From assembly GCA_038215615.1 (NCBI GenBank), contig JBBQQR010000002.1, positions 1 to 64,000 on the forward strand: a stretch of DNA of 64,000 bases. The letters are read 5' to 3'. Of this stretch, positions 5,358 to 28,100 are shown in pieces. Made by a program: the position numbers and the translations under genes. How positions within the stretch are numbered: the first letter of the stretch is position 1; each line of letters begins with the position of its first letter. The notes beneath the pieces are model-generated. The model worked only from the letters and a program-made list of their open reading frames with translations, did not search any database and had not been told where the DNA came from. Source of the stretch: Vulcanimicrobiales bacterium. Its GTDB lineage: Bacteria; Vulcanimicrobiota; Vulcanimicrobiia; Vulcanimicrobiales; Vulcanimicrobiaceae.

Positions 5358-8070
<2,713 letters not shown>

Positions 8071-8071
<1 letters not shown>

Positions 8072-13421: not shown

Positions 13422-13430
13422 CCGTGCCCG

Positions 13431-13458
13431 GCAAGGATGGCAGGGGGTGTTCTCGAAC
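13431..13458 (+). promoter_or_regulatory. Putative sigma-H-like promoter of bamA (AGG-N18-GAAC)
   Basis: GCAAGG, 18 nt, GAAC; same geometry as the site upstream of minC. Confidence 0.3.
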
Positions 13459-13554
13459 AGGCGGGGCGGGCCGAAACGGCGCGGGCGGCGGACGCGTTAC
13501 GGAGCTGACGCCACGAGCGTTAGACCACTCGTACTCTCAAGGAAGATATTGTTG

Positions 13555-15825
13555 ATGACCTCGAGCCTCCGGGGTGCGCGCGGCGTGCTCCAACGGTGTG
13601 CCGGCATCGTCCTCACACTGGCAACGATCGTTTCGCTGATGACGCCTACCCCTGCGATCTCCGCGACCGCGCCGCCGATCGTTTCGGTCGACGTCTCCGG
13701 AAACGTTCACGTGCCCACCGCGACGATCATGAACGTCATCGCGGCCAAGCCCGGCCAGGCCTACGATCCGAAGGTCGTGCAAGCCGACCTGCAGCGCATC
13801 TTCGCGCTGGGTTATTTTGCCGATCAGGCCGCGCCGCTGATCCGCCAGCGTCCCAACGGCATCGCGATCACCTACCGCGTGATCGAAAATCCGGTCATTA
13901 CGAAAATCAACTTTCAAGGAAACACGCACGTGCCGGCAGACACGCTGCTGGCGCTGATGGATACGTCGGTCGGCCAGGTGCTCAACACCAATACGATGCG
14001 GCAAGACTTCCTGAAGATCAACTCCTACTACGATCGCATCGGTTACGCCGGACAGCTGCCGTCGCACGTCACGAACCTCGACATCAGCAGTCAAACTGGG
14101 GCGGTCACCCTCGACATCAAGGAAGGCCTGACGATCACGGCCGTCAAGATCGGCGGCGACCCGGTGCTTCCGCCTAACTTGATTCTGCCGGTGCTCAACG
14201 TCAAGCCCGGCGTCGAGTATTCCGACGCGCTGCGCGATAAAGATTATCAGGCGCTGCAGACGCTCTACCAAGACAAGTTCAACTTGATCCTCGGCGGTTT
14301 TGAGGGTGGCATTGATGCCACCACCGTCGATCCGAAAGCCGGAACCGCCGCGGTGACCTACGATATCTATGTCGCGCGGGTCGGTTTGGTTCAAGTCACA
14401 GGCAACACGAAGACGAAGGACCAGGTCGTCCGGCGTCAGCTCGCGCTTCAGCCGGGAATGATCGTGACGAAGGCCGGCGTGCAGCGCGATTTGGAACGCT
14501 TGAACAACACGCAGTTCTTTTCGAAAGTCGACGTCAATCCCAAACCGTGTCCCGACGAAATGCAGAAAAAAGATCCGGGTTGCGTCGTTCTCGACTGGGT
14601 GGTCGTCGAGCAGAAGACCGCGCAGGCTTCGATCGGCGCGGGCTATTCGGGCGGCATCACGGGTCAAGGCCTGTACGGGACGGTCGGGTACAGCGACAAC
14701 AATCTGCACGGCACGGGCAACGGAGCGAGCTTCCAGTTTGAGCGCGGATCGCGCAGCTATGTCACGCAAGCGTCGATCACGATTCCCTACGTCGGCAACT
14801 CTGCCAAATCTCAGCGTTATAGTTTCGGCGCGACCATCTTTGCCAACGGCAACACGTATTTCTATCCAGTCTATACAACGGCCGTCGGCAACGCCGCGAC
14901 CGATCCGACGCAGCCCATTCCGGTAACGCTGCTGCCTTCCAACAATGCGGCGCTGCTCAGCGGCGTGGTTGCGACGAGCACCGCGAAGACCGCGGGCGTC
15001 TCGGTGAACGTGGGACGGCGCTTATCCGAGACGCTGCTGGCGCAGATCGGCATCAATGCGGAAAACGTGACGAACAGCACCACAGTGCCGTCGCCGTTTT
15101 TCTTCCAGTCGAGTCAGCCGAACATCATCGTCGGGCCGACGCCCGGACCGCTCAGCAACTTGACTGCGAACACGGGGAGCTTCGGCATTCAAGCGTCTTC
15201 GATCGCGAACATCAACACCGGACAGCCGTACCGCCTGAACTCGCTCTCGTTCTCGCTGGGATCGATCCCGGCCGCGACGCTCGACGACATCTTCAATCCG
15301 CGCCGCGGTGGAACGGTCTCGTTCAGCGAGACGGTCTCGACGCCGGCGATCGGGTCGAACTTCTCGTTCACCCAAAGCACGGTGGATGCGACCAGGTTCT
15401 TCCCGATTCTCAAGGACTCGACATTCGGTCTGCACGGTCAAGTGCGCGCCTCGACGGGTGCGATTCCGCCGAGCGCACTGTTCACGTTCTCCGATCAAAA
15501 CTTGCGCGGATACGACAGCGTCTACTACGGCACGGATACGGTGCTCGGACAGATCGAACTGCGCAAGCCGGTCACGGCCGACCGGAAATTCTCGGTCGCA
15601 GTCTTTGCGGATGAAGGCGGCTGGCGCGTGCGCGGTGCGGCTCCGCTGCTCGATCCCTACACGAACAGAATCATCGGATTCCCCGGTAACTGGTCGTACC
15701 TTGGTGATGTCGGCTTCGGATTGCGTTTCGACGTACCGCAGCTCGGCCTGCATACGATTCGTATCGACTTCGCGAAAGGTTCTAACGGCAATCACACCAG
15801 CTTCGGCATAGGCCAAAGCTTCTAG
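13555..15825 (+). CDS. bamA: Omp85/BamA outer-membrane protein assembly factor (about 3 POTRA domains plus barrel)
   Basis: Signal peptide; POTRA motifs (SGNVHV...DLQRIFALGYF, TGNTKTKDQVVRR); LRGY lid-lock motif; C-terminal FGIGQSF. Confidence 0.93.
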   Translation: MTSSLRGARGVLQRCAGIVLTLATIVSLMTPTPAISATAPPIVSVDVSGNVHVPTATIMNVIAAKPGQAYDPKVVQADLQRIFALGYFADQAAPLIRQRPNGIAITYRVIENPVITKINFQGNTHVPADTLLALMDTSVGQVLNTNTMRQDFLKINSYYDRIGYAGQLPSHVTNLDISSQTGAVTLDIKEGLTITAVKIGGDPVLPPNLILPVLNVKPGVEYSDALRDKDYQALQTLYQDKFNLILGGFEGGIDATTVDPKAGTAAVTYDIYVARVGLVQVTGNTKTKDQVVRRQLALQPGMIVTKAGVQRDLERLNNTQFFSKVDVNPKPCPDEMQKKDPGCVVLDWVVVEQKTAQASIGAGYSGGITGQGLYGTVGYSDNNLHGTGNGASFQFERGSRSYVTQASITIPYVGNSAKSQRYSFGATIFANGNTYFYPVYTTAVGNAATDPTQPIPVTLLPSNNAALLSGVVATSTAKTAGVSVNVGRRLSETLLAQIGINAENVTNSTTVPSPFFFQSSQPNIIVGPTPGPLSNLTANTGSFGIQASSIANINTGQPYRLNSLSFSLGSIPAATLDDIFNPRRGGTVSFSETVSTPAIGSNFSFTQSTVDATRFFPILKDSTFGLHGQVRASTGAIPPSALFTFSDQNLRGYDSVYYGTDTVLGQIELRKPVTADRKFSVAVFADEGGWRVRGAAPLLDPYTNRIIGFPGNWSYLGDVGFGLRFDVPQLGLHTIRIDFAKGSNGNHTSFGIGQSF

Positions 15826-15830
15826 GAGCT

Positions 15831-16634
15831 ATGAAGAGTACATCAGCAATAGTATTAGCGGCAGCCGCGCTCGTGGCGCTGCTCGCCGCCCCGGCCGCCA
15901 TCGCGGCGGATCTCACCGACGTCGGCTATTTAGATCAAGCCGCGGTCGGCGCACTTCCGCAGTTCCAGCGTGCGAACGCGGAAGTGAATCAGTATAAGGC
16001 CCAACTCGATCCGCAATTTGCCGCCGCGATGAAGAGGGCGCGCAACGACGCCGACCGCCAGCGTATTCAGGGAGATTTTCAACAGAAGTTCCTCGATAAG
16101 CAGCGCCAGGTACTCGGACCGCTTTTCGCGCGCGCGCAGACGGCGATCGCGCAGATCGCGTCCAACCAGCGCCTGTCGGTCGTGGTCGACAAACGCATTG
16201 TCGTATTCGGCGGCCAGAACATCACCAAGAGCGTGGTCGATCTCGTCAATGGCCCGGGGCCCGTCGTTCCGCCGGCGAGTACGCCGCCGCCCGCCGTGAT
16301 CGGCTTCGTCGATCAGTCGCAGATCGATCAGCTGCCGAAGATCAAAGCGGCCAACGATAACTTCTTGAAATTTGCCGGCGACGCTCGTCAAGGCGCCATG
16401 CAAAAAATGCAGGCCGCCAAGAACAATCAGCAGCAGCAACAGCAAATCTTCCAGCAATATCAAAAATCGCTCACCGACGAGCAGAACCGCACGCTCAAGC
16501 CGCTGGTCGATCAGACGCGCAGCGCCATGGCGACCGTCGCAAACCAAAAGCATTTGATCCTCGTGATTGACCGGGCGGACATTATCTACGGCGGCGCGGA
16601 CATCACAGCCGATGTCCAAAATGCGCTCAAGTAG
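15831..16634 (+). CDS. OmpH/Skp-like chaperone with two tandem OmpH domains
   Basis: Signal peptide; two repeats (VGYLDQ...VVFGGQNIT and IGFVDQ...IIYGGADIT) joined by a Pro linker. Confidence 0.85.
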   Translation: MKSTSAIVLAAAALVALLAAPAAIAADLTDVGYLDQAAVGALPQFQRANAEVNQYKAQLDPQFAAAMKRARNDADRQRIQGDFQQKFLDKQRQVLGPLFARAQTAIAQIASNQRLSVVVDKRIVVFGGQNITKSVVDLVNGPGPVVPPASTPPPAVIGFVDQSQIDQLPKIKAANDNFLKFAGDARQGAMQKMQAAKNNQQQQQQIFQQYQKSLTDEQNRTLKPLVDQTRSAMATVANQKHLILVIDRADIIYGGADITADVQNALK

Positions 16635-17922
16635 GACTCTCTTCGCAGGGTTAGCGGCAGCGATCGTCATGCTTGCGGGATGCGCGCAGCAGCGCGCTGA
16701 CGATCCGAACGTACGCGGCATCGGATACGTGCGCATGGAAGAAGTGCTCAAGAAACACCCGCTCTATCCGCAGCTGGCGCAGATCGACGACTCGATCGAC
16801 GCCCTGGGCCTGCATTCGCTCGGTGCCGGCGCCGTGCCCCACACGGGCAAGCAGATCGCCGTGCAGACCAAAGAACTCAACGCCGAGCTGAAAGCCGCGC
16901 AAGATCGCGCTAACGTCATTTTGCGGCAGAAGCAGCTGGATTACGCGCAGCGCGAGCAAGCCGCGATCTCAGCCGCGTTGGCCGCCGCCGGCGCCGGAAC
17001 GAACGGCGCGCAGAGCGCGCAGGCGATGCAGAGCATTTCGGCGTCGCAAGCACAGCAAGTGACGGCGCAAGCCAACAACGATTTCACGCAGTACCAGCAG
17101 AGCGTTATCGCGCAGTCCAATGCAGCGCTGCAATCGATTGGGGCGCAGCTGAGCGCGCGAGCGGATCGCGCCTTCGGCCAGCGTGCGACGCAGCTGCAAG
17201 AGCGCGAATCGCAGCTCTCCCTCGAACTTTCGCAGGCCGATGCCAACAAGCGGCTGCAGCTGCGCATGAAGCTCAACGGCTTGGCTCTGCCCGACGCGAC
17301 GCGCAAAGAATACCGCGATGAACTCGCCGCGCTCGACCGGCGCGAAGCTCTGGCGGTAAACGCTCAGCGCGCCCGCGATCAGCAGACGCTGGCGGCTTAC
17401 CGCACGCAGCTCAACGGCCAGGTGCGCGGTGAAATGGCTGCTCAGTCGGCGAAGATTCACTCCGATACGCAAGCCAAACTGCAGACACGGCGCAACGAAG
17501 TTTCTCAAACGGTGTCCTCGCAGCTGCAAGGCCTGCGGCCGGCGGCGGTGCCTTCCAACCTGCCGGCCGCGACGCGCGACCGCCTCGCGCAAATAGACAA
17601 GACGTTCAAGGCGCAGTTTCAGGCCGACGCGCAAAAGACGATCGCGCAATACCAGGCGACCAAGGCCGAGCTCGATGCCAAGTACGCCGAGCTGCAGGGT
17701 GCGGACTCGGCGGCAACGGGCGCCGCGAATAGCCAATTGGGGCAGCTGCAGCGCGAACGGGATGATCTCTATAATAAAATGGTGGAACAGATACGGCGTG
17801 ACGCCGGAACAGTGGCGGCGAAACGCGGATTGCAGGTCGTGCTCGTCAATATCGAAGCCGCGCCGGGCGGCATCGATCTGACCAACGACGTTGAAAAGGA
17901 CATCGAGAGTTTACACGAGTGA
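16621..17922 (+). CDS. OmpH-like lipoprotein with long coiled-coil insertion
   Basis: Lipobox LAGC; IGYVRMEEVLKKHP start; Gln/Ala coiled coil; AAKRGLQVVL...GIDLT end. Confidence 0.7.
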   Translation: MRSSRTLFAGLAAAIVMLAGCAQQRADDPNVRGIGYVRMEEVLKKHPLYPQLAQIDDSIDALGLHSLGAGAVPHTGKQIAVQTKELNAELKAAQDRANVILRQKQLDYAQREQAAISAALAAAGAGTNGAQSAQAMQSISASQAQQVTAQANNDFTQYQQSVIAQSNAALQSIGAQLSARADRAFGQRATQLQERESQLSLELSQADANKRLQLRMKLNGLALPDATRKEYRDELAALDRREALAVNAQRARDQQTLAAYRTQLNGQVRGEMAAQSAKIHSDTQAKLQTRRNEVSQTVSSQLQGLRPAAVPSNLPAATRDRLAQIDKTFKAQFQADAQKTIAQYQATKAELDAKYAELQGADSAATGAANSQLGQLQRERDDLYNKMVEQIRRDAGTVAAKRGLQVVLVNIEAAPGGIDLTNDVEKDIESLHE

Positions 17923-18323
17923 AAAAACAGATTGTCTTCGTCGCCGCTCTGGGAGCGGCCACCCTCGCCGGCTGTGCCGGATCCACAAGCCCGATCGGCT
18001 TGGTCGACGTGCAACGGCTGACCGCGAATTGGCCGGTCTACACGAACGCGCAGAATCAGCTCGTGGCCGACCAGCGCGCCATCGCCGCAAGCAAGGGTTC
18101 CAACGCCGACAAACAGCGTCAGGTCGTGGCGTTGCAGCAGCGCTATTCGCAAATCTCCAACCAACTCGTTTCGCAGGTTCGCGCGGCAACGGCAAAAGTG
18201 GCCGGGCAAAAGCAGTTGAAGCTGGTCGTGACGCGCGAGTTCGTCGGATACGGTGGTACCGATATCACCGGCGACGTTGAAAAGCTGCTCGGCATCACCG
18301 AAAAACCGACGCCTTCGCCATAG
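17919..18323 (+). CDS. Short OmpH-like lipoprotein
   Basis: Lipobox LAGC; IGLVDVQRL...VGYGGTDIT. Confidence 0.75.
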   Translation: MKKQIVFVAALGAATLAGCAGSTSPIGLVDVQRLTANWPVYTNAQNQLVADQRAIAASKGSNADKQRQVVALQQRYSQISNQLVSQVRAATAKVAGQKQLKLVVTREFVGYGGTDITGDVEKLLGITEKPTPSP

Positions 18324-19345
18324 TGCTTGGAACGCTCGGCCAGCTGGCGCAGCGGCTCGGCGGCCGTGCGATTGGCGACGACACGTTCCACGTTTCGCGC
18401 ATTGCGGCGATCGACGACGCGGACTCCGAGACGCTCACGTTTGCTACGACGCCGTCCTATTTAGAAGAGGCGCTGAAATCGCGCGCCGGCGCCGTCCTCG
18501 TCGAGGAATCGTTGCTGGCACCTGAGTTGACGGAACGTCCCCGCAAACCGCTGGTCGCGGTACCTAACGCGCGCGCCGCGCTCGCGGCACTGCTCCAAAC
18601 CTTCGAACGTCCGCGTAAGACGGGCCCGTTCCGCCATCCGTCGGCATCGGTGGAGGCCGACGCGGTCGTGGGATCCGATGTATACATCGGCGCGCACGCC
18701 GTCGTCAGCTCGGGAGCGCGCATCGGCGCCCGCACCGTGCTCGAGGCCGGAGCCTACGTCGGCGCGCAGGCCACCATCGGTGACGGCGCCCTTCTGCATC
18801 CGCATTCGACGGTGCTCGACGGATGCACCATCGGCGATCGCGTGATTCTGCACAGCGGATCCGTGATCGGTTCGGATGGCTTCGGCTACGTTTTCATCGA
18901 CGGAAAATTTGAGAAGATCCCGCAAGTCGGTAATGTGGTGATCGGCAGCGATGTCGAGATCGGCGCGAATACGTGCGTCGACCGCGCGCAAACGGGCAGC
19001 ACGCACATCGGCGACGGAACGAAGATCGACAATCTGTGCCAGATCGGTCACAACTGCCGCATAGGCAAACACTGCGGCATCGCCGCGGAAGCGGGTCTGG
19101 CGGGCAGCACGATTCTGGGAGATTACGTTCTGGTCGGCGGCAAGGCCGGATTCTCCGGGCATCTCACGGTCGGATCGCGCGCGAGAATCGGCGGCGGCAG
19201 CCAGGTTTGGAAAGACGTACCCGAAGGCGCTTTTTACAGCGGCGTTCCGGCTCGTCCGCACGACCAGCAAATGCGTCGAGAGGTCATGATTCGCAACCTG
19301 GCTAAGCTCGTCGCCCGTGTCGACGCGCTCGAAAAACGTCAGTGA
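18323..19345 (+). CDS. lpxD: UDP-3-O-acyl-glucosamine N-acyltransferase
   Basis: Hexapeptide repeats; GSDGFGY, KIPQVG, KIDNLCQIGHN. Confidence 0.97.
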   Translation: MLGTLGQLAQRLGGRAIGDDTFHVSRIAAIDDADSETLTFATTPSYLEEALKSRAGAVLVEESLLAPELTERPRKPLVAVPNARAALAALLQTFERPRKTGPFRHPSASVEADAVVGSDVYIGAHAVVSSGARIGARTVLEAGAYVGAQATIGDGALLHPHSTVLDGCTIGDRVILHSGSVIGSDGFGYVFIDGKFEKIPQVGNVVIGSDVEIGANTCVDRAQTGSTHIGDGTKIDNLCQIGHNCRIGKHCGIAAEAGLAGSTILGDYVLVGGKAGFSGHLTVGSRARIGGGSQVWKDVPEGAFYSGVPARPHDQQMRREVMIRNLAKLVARVDALEKRQ

Positions 19346-20184
19346 CGCACTACCAAACCACGCTGCGTGAACCCCTCGCCTTTGAAGGCGTAGGTTTGCA
19401 TTCGGGCGCTCCCTGCCGAGTCGAAATTCGGCCCGCGGCTCCCGGCACGGGATTCCGCTTTGTGAGCTCGGGTGTCGAGATACCGGCGCTCGCAGAATAC
19501 GTCGTGGAAACCGCGCGCGCGACGGTTATCGGTAAAGACGGCGTCACCATTTCGACGGTCGAGCACCTGCTGGCCGCACTCTTCGGAATGGGTGTTTCAA
19601 ACGCGGAGCTGGCGGTGGACGGTCCGGAGATTCCGGTTGCCGACGGCAGCGCAAAAGTTTTCGCCGAAGCGATCGCCGCTGCCGGCATTGCAACCCAGCG
19701 CGAAGCGCGCGAAACTTTTGTTCCGGCGTCCCCCGCGTTCGCGCGTGACGGCGATCGCGTGGTGACGGTTCTGCCGGCCGGCGCGCTGCGCGTGAAGTTC
19801 GTCGGGGATTACGCGCCGCCGATCGGAACGCAATATTTCGACGGCGAGATCGATCCCGAAATGTTCCTCAAAGAGATCGCCGGCGCACGCACGTTCGGCT
19901 ACGTTCACGAAGTCGAAGCGTTGCTCAAGCGCGGCCTCGCCAAAGGCGGAACGCTGGAGAACGCGCTCGTCTTTGCGCCCAACGGTCCACTGCAGCCGCT
20001 GCGTTGGGAAAACGAGCCGGTTCGCCACAAGGTACTGGACTTGCTCGGAGACTTCGCGCTGCTCGGCGCCTGGCCGCAGTGCGAGGTCGTTGCGATCAAG
20101 AGCGGTCACAAACTGCACTGCATCATGACGCAACAGCTGCGCAGGCAAATCGGCGGCAGGCTTTCCGCGAAAGCGAGCTCGTAG
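19342..20184 (+). CDS. lpxC: UDP-3-O-acyl-GlcNAc deacetylase
   Basis: Motifs GVGLHSG, TVEHLLAAL, ARTFG, HKVLDLLGD and KSGH. Confidence 0.97.
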   Translation: MTHYQTTLREPLAFEGVGLHSGAPCRVEIRPAAPGTGFRFVSSGVEIPALAEYVVETARATVIGKDGVTISTVEHLLAALFGMGVSNAELAVDGPEIPVADGSAKVFAEAIAAAGIATQREARETFVPASPAFARDGDRVVTVLPAGALRVKFVGDYAPPIGTQYFDGEIDPEMFLKEIAGARTFGYVHEVEALLKRGLAKGGTLENALVFAPNGPLQPLRWENEPVRHKVLDLLGDFALLGAWPQCEVVAIKSGHKLHCIMTQQLRRQIGGRLSAKASS

Positions 20185-20657
20185 TGGCCGAACTCGACAT
20201 CCGGCAGATCATGGAGATACTGCCGCACCGCTATCCGCTGCTGCTCGTCGATCGCATCCTGGAATTGGAAGCCGGCGTGCGCGCGCGCGGCTATAAGAAC
20301 ATCACAAATAACGAACCGGTCTTCACCGGTCACTTTCCGGGGAACCCGGTGCTGCCCGGCGTTTACATGATCGAAGCGCTGGCGCAACTCGGCGGGTGCG
20401 TCGTCCTCGAACCCGGCGAGTTTTCGCGCAAGATACCGTACTTGGCCGGGATCGATCGCGCAAAGTTTCGTCGTCCGGTGATTCCCGGAGACTGCTTCAT
20501 GATGGAAGCGACCCTAATCAAGCACAAGCGCAACATCGGTTGGGTGCAGGCGGAAGGGCGCGTCGGCGACGAGTTCGCCGTATCGGCCGTGCTAACGTTT
20601 TCGATCTCTTCGGATCCCCGGCTGCGCGGTTATGATGCAGCCGTCTTGCACGTCTAA
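20184..20657 (+). CDS. fabZ: 3-hydroxyacyl-ACP dehydratase
   Basis: LPHRYPLLLVDRI and GHFPGNPVLPGVYMIEALAQ; the GTG overlaps the lpxC stop. Confidence 0.97.
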   Translation: MAELDIRQIMEILPHRYPLLLVDRILELEAGVRARGYKNITNNEPVFTGHFPGNPVLPGVYMIEALAQLGGCVVLEPGEFSRKIPYLAGIDRAKFRRPVIPGDCFMMEATLIKHKRNIGWVQAEGRVGDEFAVSAVLTFSISSDPRLRGYDAAVLHV

Positions 20658-20666
20658 GGCCGGCGC

Positions 20667-21437
20667 TTGATCCACCCAACCGCGATCGTTCACCCGAACG
20701 CGAACGTTGACCGCGGCGTTGAGATCGGACCGTTTTGCATCGTGGGTGAAAACGTTTCTCTTGGGCGCGGATCGGTGCTGCAGTCGCACGTCGTTGTCAA
20801 CGGATGGACGACGATCGGCGAAGACTGTAAGATCTTCCCGTTTGCGACGATTGGCGCGCCGTCGCAGGACAAGAAATATCAGGGCGAGCGCGCCTACACG
20901 CGGATCGGCAGCCGGACGACGGTGCGCGAATACGTCAGTATCCAGCGCGCCACGGGCGAAGATCAGGTAACGTCGGTTGGCGACGACTGCTTGTTCCTGG
21001 CCTACGTGCACATCGCGCACAACTGCGTCGTCGGCAACAGCGTGACGATGAGCAACCTCGCGCAACTGGCCGGGCATTGCATCATCGAAGACAACGCGCT
21101 GATCGGCGGCATGACGGCGCTGCATCAGTTTACGCGCGTCGGATCCTATGCCATGGTCGGCGGCGCGAGCCGCCTTACGCGCGACGTACCGCCGTTTTTT
21201 TTGGTGGCGGGAAATCCGGCCGAACCGTACGGTCTCAACAGCGTCGGATTGCGGCGCGCCGAGTTCTCGGCCGACGACCGCGCCGAGATCAAGAAATTCT
21301 ACAAGATCCTGTACGGGTCGAAATTGAATCTTTCACAGGCAATCGAGACGATGAAGGCCGAGGCTGCGACCGAGTCGGGCAAACACATCATCGCGTTCTT
21401 GGAAGCCGACTCTCAGCAAGGCATTCTCCTGAAGTGA
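20667..21437 (+). CDS. lpxA: UDP-GlcNAc O-acyltransferase
   Basis: IHPTAIV, QDKKY, HIAHNC, LAGH, HQF, GLNSVGLRR. Confidence 0.97.
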   Translation: MIHPTAIVHPNANVDRGVEIGPFCIVGENVSLGRGSVLQSHVVVNGWTTIGEDCKIFPFATIGAPSQDKKYQGERAYTRIGSRTTVREYVSIQRATGEDQVTSVGDDCLFLAYVHIAHNCVVGNSVTMSNLAQLAGHCIIEDNALIGGMTALHQFTRVGSYAMVGGASRLTRDVPPFFLVAGNPAEPYGLNSVGLRRAEFSADDRAEIKKFYKILYGSKLNLSQAIETMKAEAATESGKHIIAFLEADSQQGILLK

Positions 21438-21458: not shown

Positions 21459-22574
21459 ATGCGCTATTTTTTCTCGACCGGCGAAGCCTCGGGAGAACTG
21501 ACGGCCGTCGCGCTGGCCGAAGCGATCGCGCGGCTCGATCCGGACGCGCGATTCGAGGGAATCGGATCGGACCGCATGCGCGCGTCGGGCTTTACGGTCC
21601 GGCAAGATAACGGCGGATGGGCGAGCATGGGGCCGCTGGCGGCGATTCCGCGTATTCCCAAACTGCTGGCGATCGGTTTGCGCATTGCGATGCAACTCGT
21701 GCTCTCGCCGCCCGATCTCGTGGTGCTGGTCGACTTCGGCGCATTTAACGTTCGGCTTGCTAAAGTTTTACGCGCGCTCGGATTTCGTAAGCCCATTATC
21801 GATCTCTATCCGCCCGGAACGTGGCTCGACGATCCCAAACGTGCTAAAGACGTCGCGCGAGTCGCCACTCCTCTAACCGCGTTCGCGCACCAGCGTGATT
21901 TTTTTGCGGCGCTCGGATTGCCGATCGCCTACTTCGGACATCCCTTGGCTTCGCGTTACGCGATGCGCCCGCTGCGCTCGGCGCCTCCCTCCGACGGCGG
22001 CACGGTTGCGATTTTACCGGGCAGCCGTCCGGGCGAACTGACATTTCACGTTCCGCTCCTGCTGCGCGCGTTTGCGCTCTTGAAAGCCAAGCGTCCGCGC
22101 CTGCGCGCCGTTGCCGGCCCGGCGGATGAACGCGGCAAACAGTACATAAAGGATGCCGCGGCTCGCGAAGGCATTGCGGATCTTTCCTTCGCACCCGGAA
22201 CGGGCACCGCGATCGGAGACGCCGACGCGGCGTGGGTGTCGTCCGGGACCGCGGTGCTCGAGTGCGCGCTCTCGGGCGTACCGGTCGTGGCGCTCTACGT
22301 CGTGTCGCGGCGTTTGGAAGGCTACGCGCAGCGTCTGCGCGCCGGCCGCTTCGTGACGCTTCCGAATCTGGTCATGCGCAGGGAGATCGTGCCCGAACTG
22401 CTGCAAGAGCTGGCGACGCCCGAAGGTTTGGCTCGGGAAATGGACGCGCTGCTGCGCGATCCGTCAGAGCAGTATGCTGAGTTTTCCGCGCTGCGCGAAG
22501 CGCTCGGCCCGCCCGACGCCATCGAGCGCTGCGCGGCCTTTGCCTTCGAGCTGGCGAAGAGCGGAACGGGCTGA
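21459..22574 (+). CDS. lpxB: Lipid-A-disaccharide synthase
   Basis: GEASGE, VDFGAFN, GHPL, LPGSR, SGTAVLE, LPNL, PELLQ. Confidence 0.92.
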   Translation: MRYFFSTGEASGELTAVALAEAIARLDPDARFEGIGSDRMRASGFTVRQDNGGWASMGPLAAIPRIPKLLAIGLRIAMQLVLSPPDLVVLVDFGAFNVRLAKVLRALGFRKPIIDLYPPGTWLDDPKRAKDVARVATPLTAFAHQRDFFAALGLPIAYFGHPLASRYAMRPLRSAPPSDGGTVAILPGSRPGELTFHVPLLLRAFALLKAKRPRLRAVAGPADERGKQYIKDAAAREGIADLSFAPGTGTAIGDADAAWVSSGTAVLECALSGVPVVALYVVSRRLEGYAQRLRAGRFVTLPNLVMRREIVPELLQELATPEGLAREMDALLRDPSEQYAEFSALREALGPPDAIERCAAFAFELAKSGTG

Positions 22575-23314
22575 TGCGCATCTATCACACGTCCGATTTG
22601 CACGATCACCGCGGCATTGCGCCGCGGCTGCGTTCGCTGCGGCAGGACTCGCCGGGCTTGCTGTTCGATTGTGGCGACTCGCTGCGAGGCAGCCAAACCG
22701 TCTATCATCGCCAAGAGCCGGTCATCGCCGAGATCGATAGCGCCGGATACGACGCGCAGGCAATCGGCAACCGCGAATTTCATTACCTGTTCGGGTGTTT
22801 ACGCGCGCGCGCCGCGCAGATGCAGCATCCGCTGATTTGCAGCAACTTGGTCGATCTCAAGGGACGCGAACTTCCGTTCTCGCGCTTTCACACGATCGAG
22901 TATGCCCCGCCGGGAGAGCGGCCCGTTCGCGTTCACCTCGCGGCAATGCTCGTCACGCAATATCCGGCCGGGAGTCCGTGGGAACGAATCTTCGGGTGGC
23001 GTTTTTTGGATCCGCAGACCGTGCTGCGCGAATACATCGAGAGCGTTCCGGCGGGCGACGCACTGATCGTGCTCTCGCATTTGGGCTTGCACCGCGACCG
23101 CGAACTCGCCGTGGGTAATCCGCGCATCGACCTGCTGCTCGGCGGACACAGTCACGACACGCTCTTCGAGCCCGAAGTGCACGGTGGCGTGCCGGTCGTG
23201 CACGCCGGTCCGTACGGAGAGTACGTTTCGCAGACCGACCTCGATTACGACGTAACGCGCGCTCGCTGGTCGCTTGCGTCGTTCGCGCTGGTTCCGCTGC
23301 TGGCGGCGGCATGA
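22574..23314 (+). CDS. Cytoplasmic calcineurin-like metallophosphoesterase (UshA/5'-nucleotidase N-domain-like); candidate UDP-2,3-diacylglucosamine hydrolase
   Basis: Motifs TSDLH, DCGD, GNRE, LSHLG and GGHSH; no signal peptide; overlaps lpxB and the next gene. Confidence 0.8.
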   Translation: MRIYHTSDLHDHRGIAPRLRSLRQDSPGLLFDCGDSLRGSQTVYHRQEPVIAEIDSAGYDAQAIGNREFHYLFGCLRARAAQMQHPLICSNLVDLKGRELPFSRFHTIEYAPPGERPVRVHLAAMLVTQYPAGSPWERIFGWRFLDPQTVLREYIESVPAGDALIVLSHLGLHRDRELAVGNPRIDLLLGGHSHDTLFEPEVHGGVPVVHAGPYGEYVSQTDLDYDVTRARWSLASFALVPLLAAA

Positions 23315-24474
23315 AATCCGTGCTGTTCGTTTCGAACGGGCACGGAGAAGCGGCGATCGCGGCGCGCATAGCGCGCGAAATAGAGAAGCTGTCGGATCTG
23401 GCGTGCGACCACTTGGCGCTCGTCGGCCCTTCGACGAGCTCGGGACAGGCTCAAGAAGCGATCTCGAACCCTTGGGCCCCGCTGCGCGACGTCGGTCCGC
23501 GCAGAAAAATGCCGAGCGGCGGAATCGTCGCGATGGGAAATTTCCGCAATCTCGCGCGAGACGTCGCGGCCGGCCTGGGTTCACTGACGATCGCGCAGTG
23601 GCGCTTTCTCGCGCGCAGCGGGCGCGATTATGCCGCCACTGTTGCGGTCGGCGATGCGTTCGCGCTCTTCATGGCGTTGCGCGCGGGCGCGCCGGTTGTT
23701 TTTGTGGGAACGGCGAAGAGCGTGTACGTCGCGCCGTACGGCCGTCTCGAAGAAGGCCTCATCCGGCGGGCATCCGCTGCATTCGTGCGCGATGCTGCGA
23801 CGGTACAGGCCCTCGCAGCTCATGGCGTTCGCGCACGCGACGCGAACGTGATGGCGGATCTCGGCGTCGCCGAGCAGGCGCAGCGCCCAACTGTGGCAGG
23901 CGACCCGCTCGTCGCTATTTTCCCGGGCAGCCGCGACGACGCATACGAGCAGGCAGCGTTCTTGCTGCGCGTGCTCGCCGGCGCACAAACGCTGCGGGCG
24001 GGAATCAGAGGTGTGCTTTCGGTCGCGCCCGGGTTGAAAGCGCAGCGATTTGCCGCCGCTTTGGAAAATGCGGGACTGAGGGTCGTTACCCGCGCCGATT
24101 CGCTCGAACCGTTTTCTGTGTATGCCGGGGGCATCGAGATCGCGCGCGCCTGGACGGGAGAGATCGGCGCGGCGATCGAGCTCGCGCAGTTAGTGCTCGG
24201 GCAAGCCGGAACGGCGAACGAGGCCGCGGCCGCCGCGGGCGCTCCTGTGATTGCATTTGAAGGCGGCGGATGGTACCGGCGCCGCCAAGTCGCGCTGCTG
24301 GGTGGGGCGCTGCGCGTACTTCCGCGCAACGAACAATCGGGCGCGCGTGAAGTGGCCGCACTCTTGCAAGACGAGCCCGAACGCGAACGAATGGCGCGCA
24401 CCGGCCGCGAGCGCTTGGGAGCGCCGGGCGCGGCGGCCCGCATCGCCGAAGAGATCGTACGGCGTTGCGCCTGA
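23311..24474 (+). CDS. Lipid-A-disaccharide synthase-related GT-B glycosyltransferase (SNGHGE family)
   Basis: Motifs SNGHGE, MPSGG, VGD, GTAKS, FPGSR and AGTANE, typical of the cyanobacterial LpxB-related family. Confidence 0.8.
   Translation: MKSVLFVSNGHGEAAIAARIAREIEKLSDLACDHLALVGPSTSSGQAQEAISNPWAPLRDVGPRRKMPSGGIVAMGNFRNLARDVAAGLGSLTIAQWRFLARSGRDYAATVAVGDAFALFMALRAGAPVVFVGTAKSVYVAPYGRLEEGLIRRASAAFVRDAATVQALAAHGVRARDANVMADLGVAEQAQRPTVAGDPLVAIFPGSRDDAYEQAAFLLRVLAGAQTLRAGIRGVLSVAPGLKAQRFAAALENAGLRVVTRADSLEPFSVYAGGIEIARAWTGEIGAAIELAQLVLGQAGTANEAAAAAGAPVIAFEGGGWYRRRQVALLGGALRVLPRNEQSGAREVAALLQDEPERERMARTGRERLGAPGAAARIAEEIVRRCA
23427..23450 (+). repeat. REP-like palindromic element inserted in-frame (encodes PSTSSGQA)
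   Basis: CCCTTCGACGAGCTCGGGACAGGC shares CCCTTCGACGAG with the intergenic copy at 8084-8095. Confidence 0.6.
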
Positions 24475-25676
24475 CGCGAGGATTACCGCTCGCGTTTGCG
24501 CTGACGAATTTCGCTATCCCGTTTTTTCCCGCGTTCATCACGCTGACGGCGGTGACCGTACCCGGCGTTTCGCTCGTGCCGCGCTGGTTCGCCGTAACGC
24601 TGCTCGTCGTGATGGCGGTCGTGGCGATCTACGCAACAATGACGCTGCTCGTTCCGCCGCTCCAAACGCCGGCAACGTTTTGGCCGCTGCTCGCCTGGAT
24701 CGGTGCGGCGCTGCTTTCCGCGGCACTGGGTTTCGATCCGCGCGGCGGCCTGCTCTTCATCGGCATCTTCGGACTCGCGCTGGTTTGGCATCTGGCGATC
24801 CTGCGCTATTACCGGGCTCCCGGCGTGAGCCGCGCGATTTTTACCAGTTACCTGCTCTCGGGCGGATTAGCTTCGCTGGCCGCGATCGTCATGGTCATCA
24901 CGCGTGTTCCGGTCTCAGAATATGCGATCGGACACGGACGCGCGATCGGGACGTTCATTCTGCCGGGCGAACTGGCGGGTTATCTCATTATTTTCTTGCC
25001 GATCTCGTACGCGGTCGCGCGCGTTTCGCAGGACGCGCGTTTACGCGTGCTGGCGTGGGCCGCGCTCGCAGCGGGCGCTGCAGCATTTTTGATGACGTTC
25101 TCGCGCGCCGGATGGATGGGACTGGCGGCGGCGATCGCGTTCTACATCTTTTTCGGCGGCGGCATCCGCCGCCGTTACGCTCCGCTCATTCTGCTGGGCG
25201 GGCTTGCTGCGGTGCTCGTGGTTTTTAACGCGCATCACAATCCGTCGGAGAACTATACGCGTCTTTCCATCTGGCAGGCCGGCATCGAAATCGTACGGCG
25301 CTTTCCGCTGACGGGCGTTGGGCCGTTTAATTTCGCCCGCATCTACCCGCTCGTGCGCTTGCCCGACGGCGATGCGGCCGCATTTCACGCGCATAGCTTT
25401 CTCCTGACGATCTTTGCCGAATTGGGCCTCGTGGGACTGCTGGCGGTACTCTTCGCCTGGTGGCGCTTTGCGCTCGAACTGCTGCGCCGGCTGCGCGGCG
25501 CGTCGCCGGCGAACTCGACCATCGCGCTCGCGGTTGCGGCGGGACTCGTCGGCACGTGGGTGCAAGGGCTCATCGATACCGTGAGCGTCGTCATCTTCGG
25601 ACTGTGGCTGCCCTCAATGGCGCTCGCATTGGTCACGGCCACGGACGGACTCGGGGAGCAACCGCGATCGTCATGA
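24465..25676 (+). CDS. O-antigen ligase (WaaL/Wzy_C) family membrane protein
   Basis: Many TM helices; TFSRAGW, RLSIW, PLTGVGPFNF, HAHS...AELGLVG. Confidence 0.88.
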   Translation: MRLTRGLPLAFALTNFAIPFFPAFITLTAVTVPGVSLVPRWFAVTLLVVMAVVAIYATMTLLVPPLQTPATFWPLLAWIGAALLSAALGFDPRGGLLFIGIFGLALVWHLAILRYYRAPGVSRAIFTSYLLSGGLASLAAIVMVITRVPVSEYAIGHGRAIGTFILPGELAGYLIIFLPISYAVARVSQDARLRVLAWAALAAGAAAFLMTFSRAGWMGLAAAIAFYIFFGGGIRRRYAPLILLGGLAAVLVVFNAHHNPSENYTRLSIWQAGIEIVRRFPLTGVGPFNFARIYPLVRLPDGDAAAFHAHSFLLTIFAELGLVGLLAVLFAWWRFALELLRRLRGASPANSTIALAVAAGLVGTWVQGLIDTVSVVIFGLWLPSMALALVTATDGLGEQPRSS

Positions 25677-26215
25677 AAAGTATTGGCCCGCTTCTGCTTG
25701 CGGCTGCGGCGCTGGGCGCGTGCAATCCTCAGCCGCTGCGCAATTCCGCGCCGGCGCCGGCGCCGACGGCGCAGGGCGTGCCGCCGCTCAAGATTACCGG
25801 TCACGGCAGCGCGGCATCGCCCGTCCGGACGTTCGAGCAGTCGGGTAACCGGAAAGTTTACGAGCTGCTGGCGCGTTCTTACGTCAGCCGCTCCGCGCAC
25901 AACGTCGCCCAAGCGACGTTTCACGAAGCAACCGTGACGTTCTATGATAGGGACGGCTCGTCGCTGACCGCGCAAGCTCCGCAAGCTGCGGTTGACGAAC
26001 GCACCAAACAAGTCACCCTTTCCGGCGGCGTTCAGGCGCACACGAGCACGGGTGCGGCGCTCACGTGCGACCGCTTGACCTACGATCGCGAGACGGGCAT
26101 GCTGGCGGGCAGCGGCAACGTGCGCATGACGGCCGACCAGAACGGATCGCACGAGGTGCTGACCGGCAACACGTTCACGTCCGATATCAAATTGACTCGA
26201 ATGGTGATCAAGTGA
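25673..26215 (+). CDS. lptC: LptC/LptA-like beta-jellyroll LPS transport lipoprotein
   Basis: Lipobox [13 protein letters not shown]...LTCDRLTYD...GSGNV repeats; directly before lptB. Confidence 0.75.
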
Positions 26216-26967
26216 CGGCGCAGCAAAACCCGGCTCGACAGATAAACATACGCGACCTGCGTAAGCGTTACGGCGAGCGCACCGTCGTCGACGGCGTCAG
26301 CGCCGAAGTACGCACGGGAGAGATCGTCGGACTGCTCGGTCCCAACGGTGCGGGCAAGACGACCACGTTTTATATGGTCGTCGGGTTGGTCAAAGCCGAC
26401 GGCGGTTCGGTTCTGCTCGAGACGGATGGCGGCGAGATCGATCTGACGTCTGCGCCAATGTATCAGCGGTCGCGCCGCGGCATCGGCTACTTGGCCCAGG
26501 AAAACTCGATCTTCCGCAAGCTCTCCGTCGGTGACAACATCCGCCTGATTTGGGAAATGCATGGCGTGCCGCGCGAAGAGCAAGAAGCCCGCATTGGGCC
26601 GCTGCTCGAAGAATTCGGACTGCTGCACCTGATAGAAGCGCGCGGCGACAGCCTTTCGGGCGGCGAGCGCCGGCGCGTCGAGATCGCGCGTTCGCTGGCC
26701 ACCGAGCCGGCGTTCCTACTGCTTGACGAACCATTCACCGGAATCGATCCGATCGCGGTGGCCGATATCCAAGCGATGATCCGGCAGCTGCGCGACCGCG
26801 GCCTCGGCATCTTGATTACGGATCATCAGGTGCGCGAGACGCTGGCGATCGTGGACCGCGCGTACATTCTCAATAACGGACGGATTGAAGTATCCGGATC
26901 GGCGCAAGAAGTGCTCGACAGTCCGGTCGCGCGCAAGTTTTATCTGGGCGAAGGATTCCGGCTTTGA
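26212..26967 (+). CDS. lptB: LPS export ABC transporter ATP-binding protein
   Basis: [53 protein letters not shown]. Confidence 0.96.
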
Positions 26968-28100
26968 TTCAAGCCGCCGCCCGGCCCGCGCCGTTCAGGT
27001 TCACGATTCTCGACCGCTACATGCTCAACGAACTGCTGGGACCGTTTCTTTTCGGGCTCTCGGCGTTCACGCTGATCTTCGCAGCCGCGCAGATCATCGC
27101 GATTGGCCGCGCGGTTTCGGAAGCGCACGCACCGCTTTGGGCCGCCATCGAAGCGTTTCTTTGGCAGCTGCCTTCAATGGTCGTGCTGACGATCCCGATG
27201 GCTCTGCTACTGGGAACGCTGCTGGCGATTCAGCGGCTCTCCAGCGAGAGTGAAATCACGGCGATGAACGCCGGTGGTATTACGTTCATACGCATAATAG
27301 TGCCGCTGCTCGTCGCCGGATTCGTGATGTCGATCGTCAACCTCATCTTGCAAGAGGCGATCGTTCCCTACGCGCAGACGCAGTTCACGATCATCGAAAA
27401 CACGGTGATTAATCACACGAGCGCCTTTGCCAGCGATACGACGGTGAATGCTCCGCTGCCGGGAGGCGGGCACCAGATTACGTTCTTCAACGCGTACGAC
27501 CCCAACACGCATGGACTGATGCAGGTCACGCTCGTGCAATACGACCGGGCGGGCAGTCCGACACAGATCATCTTCGCCGACCGCGCGGACTTCGCCGCCG
27601 AGAAATGGACGCTCGATAACGCGCGCATTTACCGCTTCAGCGGCCCCGGCGGACAAAGTATCGTCGGATCGCAGACTCCGACACTGCAAGTCGAACTCGG
27701 CCAATCCCCGGCGGAGATCGCCAAACGGGCGGCGGGAAACAATCCCCTGAACATGAGCCGGAAAGAGCTTGGCGAAATCATCCGGACGGGGCAGCTCACA
27801 CCTTCCGAGCTGCGCAAATATTGGATGGCCTATCAAGAAAAGCTCGCGCAGCCGTTTGCCTGTTTCGTCTTCACGCTCATCGCGGTGCCTTTTGGGATCC
27901 GCTCGGTGCGCGGCGGCGGTAGTGCGAGTCTGGGATTTGGGTTAGCGGTGCTCATCGCGTTTATTTACTACGTCGTTCAGACGGTTTTCACGGGAATAGG
28001 CGAAGCCGCACCGTTCATCGCGGCACTTGCGGCGTGGATGCCGAACCTGATCTTCACCGCCATCGGAGCGTACCGGCTGCGCCGGGCGGCGCTTATTTAA
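26964..28100 (+). CDS. LptF/LptG family permease
   Basis: [14 protein letters not shown], periplasmic jellyroll, AWMPNLIF. Confidence 0.93.

Follow-up and report, generated by a model that had tools for sequence, protein, structure and literature searches.

A small metallophosphoesterase (P0001, hereafter MPE) encoded in the lipid A operon of an Eremiobacterota genome (2.21 Mb in 54 contigs, 100% complete) is the best candidate for the missing lipid X-forming enzyme of its lineage. On balance, we lean towards reading it as a non-orthologous UDP-2,3-diacylglucosamine pyrophosphatase, a function that we infer from its observed anatomy, conservation, gene context and fold, together with the observed lack of known alternatives. 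The lipid X-forming step is essential and drug-targeted, and three enzymes, unrelated or only distantly related to each other, are known for it (LpxH, LpxI and LpxG). The features discussed here are collected in Table 1, with positions in the window, i.e., the whole stretch of 64,000 nucleotides that was analyzed. As the original prediction had it, the operon carries lpxD, lpxC, lpxA and lpxB, and MPE is translationally coupled to the last of these, the lpxB stop (TGA) and the MPE start having one base in common (TGATG). At its other end, the MPE stop overlaps the start of a gene for a TIGR03492-type glycosyltransferase (ATGA). For fabZ, the true start is probably 3' of the lpxC stop, since the family match begins only at residue 64 of the longest ORF. 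Among close relatives, GNRE and the gene order were maintained in 80 of 80 genome loci, so that a chance arrangement can be excluded. In all 80, lpxB was found directly 5' of MPE, and the TIGR03492-type gene lies 3' of it in 78, the remaining two contigs stopping short of that position.

Table 1. Genes around MPE and catalytic motifs within it (positions in the window)
Feature	Position	Strand	Evidence or remark
bamA	13204-15825	+	then three OmpH-like ORFs
lpxD	18323..19345	+	NF002060, 370 bits
lpxC	19342..20184	+	Pfam LpxC, 287 bits; TIGR00325, 231 bits
fabZ (longest ORF)	20004..20657	+	TIGR01750, 169 bits, residues 64-200
lpxA	20667..21437	+	NF003657, 352 bits
lpxB, lipid A disaccharide synthase	21459..22574	+	Pfam LpxB, 171 bits; TIGR00215, 152 bits, under cut-off 190
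MPE (P0001), 246 aa, one domain, UshA/5'-nucleotidase type	22574..23314	+	translation, Pfam, PDB profile, AF2, VIA
MPE motif I, D8-L-H10, metal ligands, extreme N-terminus	22595..22603	+	translation
MPE motif II, G34-D35, bridging Asp	22673..22678	+	translation
MPE motif III, G65-N66-R67-E68	22766..22777	+	translation; Arg67 codon CGC at 22772-22774
MPE motif IV, His169 (H169-L-G), metal ligand	23078..23080	+	translation, homologue alignments
MPE motif V, G190-G-H192-S-H194, metal ligands	23141..23155	+	translation
TIGR03492-type LpxB-related glycosyltransferase	23311..24474	+	TIGR03492, 200 bits, under cut-off 219
Wzy_C / O-antigen-ligase-like (IctB-like) membrane protein	24465..25676	+	Pfam Wzy_C, 72 bits; TIGR00947, 80 bits, under cut-off
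lptC, lptB, lptF/G (LPS export)	25460..28100 (ORFs 25460-26215, 26065-26967, 26964-28100)	+	Pfam, NCBIfam

The absence of lpxH and lpxI, which the original prediction had claimed for the operon, extends to the whole genome and to a sample of 151 genomes of its GTDB phylum by profile searches (0/151 for either enzyme). In the whole genome, the best hit to the LpxH profile (TIGR01854, cut-off 190 bits) had an E value of 0.13 and was located on another contig; LpxI_C and Cdh gave none, and LpxI_N reached only 0.089. Within MPE itself, the LpxI domains (PF06230 and PF17930) found no match, nor was TIGR01854 among its NCBIfam matches at E <= 0.001. The other four Metallophos genes of the genome (two YfcE-like, one TIGR00282 and one PdeM-like) are all devoid of the GNR motif. 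LpxG was judged by features and family names, not by a profile of its own; there was no metallophosphoesterase with an N-terminal membrane helix in the genome, and none of its metallophosphoesterases matched the NCBIfam families named LpxG or LpxH. With LpxH, LpxI and LpxG-like genes all missing, the conversion of UDP-2,3-diacylglucosamine to lipid X is left without any other assigned enzyme in the lineage. In the phylum sample, LpxB was detected in 144 of 151 genomes and MPE in 150 of 151 (143/150 and 149/150 when the unpublished genome G127 is excluded). Neither LpxK nor WaaA was found in the genome, so the final lipid A must be unusual here; LpxK appeared in a single genome of the 151, as a marginal match. 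According to excerpts of PMC3087551, the lpx genes of cyanobacteria and Dictyoglomi are limited to lpxA, lpxC, lpxD and lpxB, and the cyanobacterial LPS made with these four genes is without phosphate.

Translation and Pfam bear out the predicted anatomy of MPE: 246 residues with UshA motif spacing, a GNRE motif, and neither signal peptide nor nucleotidase C-domain. The Metallophos match (PF00149) passed its cut-off (23.3 vs 21.5 bits), the Pfam search gave no match to the nucleotide-binding C-domain (5_nucleotid_C, PF02872), and the chain ends at residue 246. Its top NCBIfam matches were SoxB, UshA-like and UshA, each far under its cut-off. The chain opens at motif I, so that neither a signal peptide nor a membrane helix could precede it, and the position of this motif, already at residue 8, indicates a cytoplasmic protein. 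The consensus of the family alignment (A2; 88 sequences, ca. 31% mean identity) likewise opens at motif I. In the AF2 model (pLDDT 97.5), the chain folds into a compact catalytic domain, which VIA aligned to 5'-nucleotidase N-domains with Z values of 26-27 over 229-234 residues; the same family was recovered by the PDB profile match (5'-nucleotidase/UshA, E 1e-34) and by Foldseek (UshA/5'-nucleotidase fold, E 1e-15). Members of the UshA/5'-nucleotidase family hydrolyse UDP-sugars to UMP and sugar-1-phosphate. For UshA itself, the NCBIfam annotation (NF007109) is that of a bifunctional UDP-sugar hydrolase/5'-nucleotidase. MPE has the fold, motif spacing and metal ligands of the N-domain of these proteins (E. 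coli UshA, 1USH; T. thermophilus, 2Z1A; human CD73), but they are ca. 550 residues long, with the signal peptide and the C-terminal nucleotide-binding domain that MPE does not have, and they are linked to nucleotide salvage, whereas MPE is linked to lipid A genes. JGI names its homologues [quoted passage not shown] or "5'-nucleotidase."

The main departure from this family is in motif III. GNREFH of MPE aligns with GNHEFD of CD73, whose His and Asp we take to be the Asp-His catalytic dyad; Arg67 stands for the catalytic His and His70 for the Asp, so that both dyad residues are altered. The expectation that GNR would be conserved among homologues held up well, with Arg in 174 of 174 related loci, where all six codons are used (CGC, CGT, CGG, CGA, AGG and AGA); of 80 short homologues, 78 have it as well. 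All 36 long relatives (450 aa or more) in which motif 3 was matched had GNH[ED], and no more than two switches between Arg and His are required in a tree of 119 sequences. The metal site is also stable, with DxH (motif I) and GGH[ST]H (motif V) in 80/80 orthologues and His169 (motif IV) in 79/80 short homologues. In the A2 alignment, H10, G65, R67, H192 and H194 are invariant and G34-D35 of motif II nearly so; taken together, the metal ligands D8, H10, D35, N66, H169, H192 and H194 show little or no variation among the 88 sequences. It should be noted that conservation within one phylum is in part inheritance. The use of His-to-Arg as the signature that separates LpxH is supported by the parts of PMC5016852 available to us, in which this motif III change is found only in LpxH, with Arg80 salt-bridging the lipid X phosphate; LpxG retains GNHD (PMC4807358, consulted as an extract).

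LpxH (TIGR01854; PDB 5B49) and MPE have much in common: both are metallophosphoesterases of the same superfamily, cytoplasmic, with an Arg in motif III, of similar size (240 aa in E. coli vs 246) and connected to the lipid A pathway, and the LpxH reaction is the one proposed for MPE. However, they differ in motif III (GNRD vs GNRE), in the lid domain, which is seen only in LpxH, and in location, as MPE sits inside the lpx operon whereas lpxH is found outside such clusters (PMC3087551, in part). Membership of MPE in LpxH was considered and rejected, since the TIGR01854 and hhalign tests failed (for hhalign, A2 against E. coli LpxH had a probability of 0.7%) and LpxH came no higher than rank 43 in the wide VIA search (Z 10.2 over 160 residues); LpxH is a distant superfamily relative. 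In LpxH, a helical insertion domain of ca. 55 residues buries the acyl chains of lipid X (PMC5016852, same parts). A lid of this kind, expected from the original prediction, could not be seen in the confident AF2 model of MPE, which has only short helices (135-140 and 147-155) in that region of the chain, and no acyl-chain site was evident in the model. LpxG from Chlamydia trachomatis (Ct461) offers a parallel, since, according to sections of PMC4807358, it is also a metallophosphoesterase recruited independently of LpxH to this step in a lineage without LpxH and LpxI, as proposed for MPE, but it has GNHD, GDXXDR and an N-terminal membrane helix, while MPE has GNRE and GDSLRG and starts at motif I. 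LpxI (Caulobacter; PF06230, PF17930) fills this gap of the pathway where LpxH is lacking and, like MPE, is located within the lpx operon beside lpxB (PMC3087551, in extract), but its fold and mechanism are unrelated.

The tightest and most conserved partner of MPE is the TIGR03492 LpxB-like glycosyltransferase, not lpxB. A metagenome scan made with a 10-sequence alignment provided 19 distant loci (MPE 33-41% identical), spanning GC contents of 34-71% in the 13 that were measured. The TIGR03492 gene was directly 3' of MPE in 16 of the 17 loci with downstream room, and lpxA and lpxB were located no more than 4 kb upstream of MPE in most. Among the 14 distant genomes of the phylum, TIGR03492 adjoins MPE in 13, and lpxB is found within 4 kb in 12; two of them (L174 and L179) have the MPE-TIGR03492 pair without any lpx gene within 8 kb. 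Thus, the predicted linkage to lpxB is conserved in the close loci and in most of the distant ones, and the MPE-TIGR03492 pair is still adjoining at 32-41% identity. We also found three diverged, fused MPE-TIGR03492 proteins with the motifs of both halves complete (P0170, and P0377 and P0378, which are 56% and 39% identical to it, respectively). Complex prediction for MPE (A2) and a TIGR03492 protein (A4), run without controls, gave a score of 0.00, which we count neither for nor against a complex. Three apparent LpxB-MPE fusions (P0127, P0142 and P0242) were discarded as Arg/Ala-rich frameshift translations of high-GC DNA, not genuine proteins; P0129 and P0150 have the same Pfam pattern. To our knowledge, Deinococcus has no lipid A altogether. 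Among the control genomes, TIGR03492 was above its cut-off in Synechococcus elongatus and Deinococcus radiodurans, and the profile search of the latter genome gave no match to LpxB, so the substrate of the MPE-TIGR03492 pair need not be a lipid A precursor. In addition, with TIGR03492 as the closest partner, the substrate of MPE could be a lipid A intermediate from further along the pathway that bears UDP or phosphate. Beside MPE in distant loci there is a gene of the ICMT family whose top NCBIfam match was LmtA in all six cases tested, with 52-73 bits against a cut-off of 325. LmtA is the lipid A 1-phosphate methyltransferase, and this neighbor is a weak hint that the product retains its 1-phosphate.

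By the mechanism that we favor, MPE would be a cytoplasmic binuclear-metal pyrophosphatase that splits its presumed substrate, UDP-2,3-diacylglucosamine, into UMP and lipid X. It would have arisen from the catalytic N-domain of a UshA/5'-nucleotidase family protein through loss of the signal peptide and the nucleotide-binding C-domain. In place of the Asp-His dyad, the site would work with Arg67 and His70; Arg67 may bind the beta-phosphate, which becomes the phosphate of lipid X, by analogy with Arg80 of LpxH, while a metal-bound hydroxide would attack the alpha-phosphate. The enzyme would act beside, and probably with, membrane-associated LpxB-type glycosyltransferases, above all TIGR03492, to which it may be physically coupled. 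The idea of a non-orthologous UDP-2,3-diacylglucosamine hydrolase, as originally predicted, thus retains the absence of the known enzymes, the conserved Arg and the lpxB linkage on its side, and has against it the lack of a visible lid and a closest partner that is TIGR03492. A tentative extension, which we put forward as possible rather than expected, is that MPE and TIGR03492 are the two parts of a coupled hydrolase-transferase unit, in some cases within one polypeptide, that would be the native route by which Terrabacteria-type diderms make and use lipid X in a "four-enzyme" lipid A pathway free of Kdo and 4'-phosphate. MPE would then add a fourth class to the UDP-diacylglucosamine hydrolases, one that evolved independently and in which the acyl chains are handled via the glycosyltransferase partner and not by a lid of its own.

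The near-constant adjacency to TIGR03492 and the three fusions would also fit a role in hydrolysis after condensation, with MPE, as partner of TIGR03492, acting on a later intermediate, either by removing the 1-phosphate from the tetra-acyl disaccharide or by cleaving a UDP- or pyrophosphate-linked disaccharide produced by an LpxB-type enzyme. The unusual final lipid A indicated by the scarcity of LpxK and the lack of WaaA points the same way, as does the phosphate-free cyanobacterial LPS from the same four-gene set (PMC3087551, as above), for which a phosphatase is needed somewhere. We nevertheless consider this rather unlikely. A pure 1-phosphatase leaves lipid X formation without an enzyme, and, judging from the LpxH mechanism (PMC5016852, in the portions seen), an Arg instead of the general-acid His fits the departure of an anionic phosphate better than that of an alcohol. 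The LmtA-like genes, well under their cut-off, are a weak hint in the same direction.

A general cytoplasmic nucleotide or UDP-sugar pyrophosphatase/phosphodiesterase, with a housekeeping role or controlling the UDP-GlcNAc-derived pool and carried as an operon passenger, seems improbable. Such an activity would agree with the family likeness to UshA, NadN and the 2',3'-cyclic nucleotide phosphodiesterases, with the phosphodiesterase name given to homologues by JGI, and with the lipid-binding lid not being visible in the AF2 model. However, the nucleoside-binding C-domain is missing and both catalytic dyad residues are altered, the order beside LpxB-type transferases is maintained down to 32-41% identity and reinforced by fusions, and MPE is nearly universal in the sampled genomes of a phylum with this one gap in its lipid A pathway. 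A non-catalytic scaffold or regulator of LpxB-type transferases, i.e., a pseudo-enzyme without the catalytic His, is very hard to credit in spite of the substituted His and dyad Asp and the fusions to a glycosyltransferase, given metal ligands that hardly vary in the divergent A2 alignment and the full activity of LpxH, which carries this Arg too (PMC5016852, as consulted).

A fourth lipid X-forming class, or the MPE family, had no mention in the literature searched, a scope that left most subscription journals outside and included excerpts of a 2026 review (PMC13721041) and of PMC13018214. The MPE family is a concrete and cheaply testable candidate for the lipid X gap in at least one whole phylum. 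Were UDP-2,3-diacylglucosamine hydrolysis by MPE true, it would represent a fourth enzyme class for this step and a second independent His-to-Arg switch from metallophosphoesterase to UDP-lipid pyrophosphatase. It would also provide a first way to approach the function of the uncharacterised TIGR03492 LpxB-like transferases, and the public annotations of the homologues (the JGI names) would need correcting. Among the distant MPE homologues in the ESM Atlas, the commonest phylum was Armatimonadota.

The window has a GC content of 62% and starts at the replication-origin region (dnaA, dnaN, recF, and gyrB), after which comes a single long envelope cluster on the forward strand. Within this cluster, the metallophosphoesterase (MPE), our candidate for the lipid X-forming enzyme, overlaps its neighbors on both sides: in TGATG, the stop codon of lpxB and the start codon of MPE have one base in common, and in ATGA the MPE stop overlaps the start of the next gene, coding for the LpxB-related glycosyltransferase TIGR03492. 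The chain opens at motif I (D8-L-H10), followed by GD (34-35), GNRE (65-68), H169, and GGHSH (190-194), with Arg67 encoded by CGC at 22772-22774. Translation and overlaps bear out everything the original prediction had described here, i.e., the ORF, its motifs, GNRE, and the coupling to lpxB.

Coordinates of features in the window and, where a locus is named, in distant metagenome loci carrying MPE
Feature	Position	Strand	Remarks
PF04185 phosphoesterase (acid phosphatase/phospholipase C type), 477 aa	2822-4255		between dnaN and recF
gyrB, first ORF	6138-7583		ATPase and DNA_gyraseB domain
gyrB, second ORF	7580-8071		Toprim and C-terminal domain; 4-base overlap with first ORF
TamB-like ORF, 1751 aa	8166-13421	+	head of envelope cluster; extends ca. 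220 bases into annotated bamA start
bamA		+	head of envelope cluster
Three consecutive OmpH/Skp-like ORFs (267, 451, 134 aa)	15831-18323	+	head of envelope cluster, between bamA and lpxD
lpxD, lpxC, fabZ, lpxA, lpxB		+	envelope cluster, upstream of MPE
MPE, 246 aa	22574-23314	+	between lpxB and TIGR03492 gene
TIGR03492 "lipid-A-disaccharide synthase-related" glycosyltransferase	23311-24474	+	downstream of MPE
Wzy_C/IctB-like membrane protein		+	after TIGR03492 gene
lptC, lptB, lptF/G		+	end of envelope cluster as listed
STAND-type signaling protein, 894 aa	38560-41244		adenylate/guanylate cyclase domain, NB-ARC, TPR repeats
ICMT/PEMT-family membrane protein	L090:4047-4634; L091:4396-5001; L096:872-1441; L085:2459-3034; L084:3013-4983; L088:2902-4305		between lpxB and MPE
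DegT-type aminotransferase and GFO/IDH/MocA oxidoreductase genes	L083:217-1320; L084:20-1144; L090:82-915; L091:1492-2499		adjoining lpxA

The lack of LpxH and LpxI that had been noticed in the operon extends to the whole genome (2.21 Mb, 100% complete) and to the 151 genomes sampled from its phylum. A profile search of the genome gave no LpxH (best E value, 0.13); LpxI_C, Cdh, LpxK, and the WaaA N-domain were not found in it either, and LpxI_N gave nothing better than E 0.089. Of its five Metallophos genes, MPE included, none had a membrane helix of the LpxG type and none gave a match to any family bearing the LpxG name; the other four (two YfcE-like, one TIGR00282, and one PdeM-like) have GNH, GNT, or no such motif at motif III. 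Close MPE homologs belong to Eremiobacterota (Vulcanimicrobiota) MAGs. In an even sample of 151 genomes covering 21 families and 71 genera of the GTDB phylum, LpxH and LpxI_C were absent (0/151 each) and LpxK was matched once, marginally (26.7 bits). LpxB (E ≤ 1e-30) was present in 144/151 and the MPE profile (E ≤ 1e-20) in 150/151, tallies that include one unpublished genome, G127 (143/150 and 149/150 without it); the sole MPE-less genome, G130 (94% complete, 220 contigs), also had no LpxB match. The gene set and order are the same as in the "four-enzyme" set of cyanobacteria and Dictyoglomi (lpxD-lpxC-fabZ-lpxA-lpxB) described in an excerpt of PMC3087551.

Motif III is GNRE in 80/80 genome loci, and the residue aligned with R67 is Arg in 174/174 loci (the 80 genome loci, 80 metagenome loci found with a profile built from distant members, and 14 distant genomes within the phylum). 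Its codons are CGC (121), CGT (18), CGG (18), CGA (7), AGG (7), and AGA (3); since no AGR codon can be reached from a His codon in fewer than two changes, Arg is selected. For the homologs, an exhaustive HMMER search gave 4953 matches (E ≤ 0.001), of which the top 150 cluster representatives were used. Among these best 150 of 4953, the short homologs (80 rows, made up of 77 representatives 225-290 aa in length, two cluster members, and the query itself) had Arg in 78 rows, His in one, and Gly in one, so that the GNR expected of homologs is indeed conserved, and GNH[ED] was found in 36/36 long relatives (≥450 aa) with a motif-3 match. When 119 catalytic domains (70 Arg, 37 His, and 12 unlabelled rows) were placed on a quick maximum-likelihood tree, only two Arg/His changes were needed. 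Alignment to CD73 places GNREFH of MPE on GNHEFD, whose His and final Asp we take to be the Asp-His catalytic dyad of the 5'-nucleotidase family; the partner Asp is thus also replaced, by H70, a position occupied in the same 80 short rows by His (56), Asn (10), or other residues (14).

The AlphaFold2 model of MPE (88-sequence alignment; pLDDT, 97.5; pTM, 0.94) was grouped by Foldseek and VIA-align with 5'-nucleotidases and UshA, at their N-terminal domains (Z of 27.4 to 2Z1A and 26.0 to 1USH, 229-234 residues aligned), and a profile search of PDB sequences gave the same assignment (E 1e-34). In contrast, LpxH (5B49) reached a Z of only 10.2 over 160 residues (rank 43), and hhalign gave E. coli LpxH and the MPE family a probability of 0.7%. 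MPE is thus a UshA-type catalytic domain, cytoplasmic and trimmed down, and not an LpxH ortholog. A helical insertion of the kind that forms the lid of LpxH is missing from the model.

The order lpxD-lpxC-fabZ-lpxA-lpxB-MPE is retained in 80/80 genome loci (59-93% identity), with TIGR03492 next in 78; in the remaining two the contig ends there. In 19 of the 80 metagenome loci, MPE is only 33-41% identical to that of the window (GC range of 34%-71% in the 13 measured). TIGR03492 is directly downstream in 16/17 of these distant loci with downstream room (3.4 kb away in L084), and in most of the 19, lpxA and lpxB are found 0.4-3.8 kb upstream. Between lpxB and MPE there lie a small ORF and genes for a second transferase that is LpxB-like and for a membrane protein of the ICMT/PEMT family, and GnnA/GnnB-like genes are nearby. 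Among the 14 distant phylum genomes, TIGR03492 adjoins MPE in 13 and lpxB is ≤4 kb away in 12 (same strand in 11), so the predicted linkage to lpxB is largely kept. Two distant genome loci, L174 and L179, have the MPE-TIGR03492 pair with no lpx genes within 8 kb, and TIGR03492 was present in 41/41 genomes around genome G062. Three fusion proteins (P0170, P0377, and P0378; 650, 653, and 640 aa) combine a complete GNRE domain and a complete TIGR03492 domain, P0377 being 56% and P0378 39% identical to P0170. The tightest partner of MPE is TIGR03492. Public "LpxB-metallophosphoesterase fusion" proteins (P0127, P0142, and P0242) are gene-calling artifacts in which high-GC Eremiobacterota DNA was translated out of frame into Arg/Ala-rich sequence, and conclusions drawn from fusions could be misled by them. 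The rejection of these proteins, the count of Arg over the family, the tallies over the phylum, and the TIGR03492 coupling with its fusions are newly added here.

UDP-2,3-diacylglucosamine is the sole nucleotide-linked lipid of the early lipid A pathway, its hydrolysis product, lipid X, is required by LpxB, and the parent UshA/5'-nucleotidase family cleaves UDP-sugars at the alpha-phosphate. A cytoplasmic UshA-type domain with the Arg swap, flanked by LpxB-type transferases and universal in a phylum that has neither LpxH nor LpxI, points to a UDP-diacylglucosamine pyrophosphatase, in which the domain, its dyad exchanged for Arg, would hydrolyze UDP-2,3-diacylglucosamine to lipid X. With moderate confidence, we regard MPE as a fourth, convergent enzyme of this kind, the best available reading. 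The convergent hydrolase of the original prediction is partly supported, by LpxH/LpxI absence, Arg, and lpxB linkage; the missing lid, TIGR03492 as the tightest partner, and the occurrence of TIGR03492 in Deinococcus radiodurans, which gave no LpxB match, count against it. In the sections of PMC5016852 consulted, LpxH Arg80 (His-to-Arg) binds the beta-phosphate, the future lipid X phosphate, and the authors know this change only from LpxH; LpxG, by contrast with the GNRE of MPE, retains GNHD (PMC4807358, in excerpt). A full-text literature search, with most subscription journals outside it, named only LpxH, LpxI, and LpxG, as do the parts of PMC13018214 and PMC13721041 listing known enzymes.

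The main rival is a phosphoesterase working with TIGR03492 on a later intermediate, as 1-phosphatase or hydrolase of a UDP-linked disaccharide. We consider this rival rather unlikely. In its favor, LpxK and WaaA are missing from the pathway and cyanobacterial LPS is reported without phosphate (PMC3087551, in excerpt); against it, Arg fits a phosphate leaving group. Also against it, LmtA is the best NCBIfam match of the ICMT-family neighbors of the distant loci in 6/6 (52-73 bits, far below the cutoff of 325). A housekeeping nucleotide hydrolase is improbable, fitting poorly with the conserved context and metal ligands, and for the same reason a pseudo-enzyme is very improbable.

In Leptospira, LmtA methylates the 1-phosphate of lipid A, and, judging from these genes, lipid A methylation may be widespread in the distant relatives, where the ICMT/PEMT-family protein is sometimes fused to the second LpxB-like transferase. 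The aminotransferase-oxidoreductase pair adjoining lpxA is the GnnA/GnnB pattern, a hint that the lipid A backbone of these relatives may be 2,3-diamino-glucose.

TIGR03492 has conserved motifs (SNGHGED, MPSGG, PGSR, and NEQ) in the window and the three fusions. Two control genomes, those of Synechococcus elongatus and Deinococcus radiodurans, have a match above its cutoff, and in the latter the profile search gave no LpxB match. The same kind of literature search, again with most subscription journals outside it, found TIGR03492 in one paper, as a table entry; one table row in PMC4507557 annotates DR2625 of Deinococcus as "lipid A disaccharide synthase-related." For two distant MPE members, Armatimonadota was the commonest phylum of the nearest ESM Atlas clusters, a lead only as to their home. 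For the two-ORF gyrB, the possible causes are a frameshift, an error of assembly, and a gene that is really split. At metagenome locus L084, a 988-aa PF04185-containing protein adjoins MPE.
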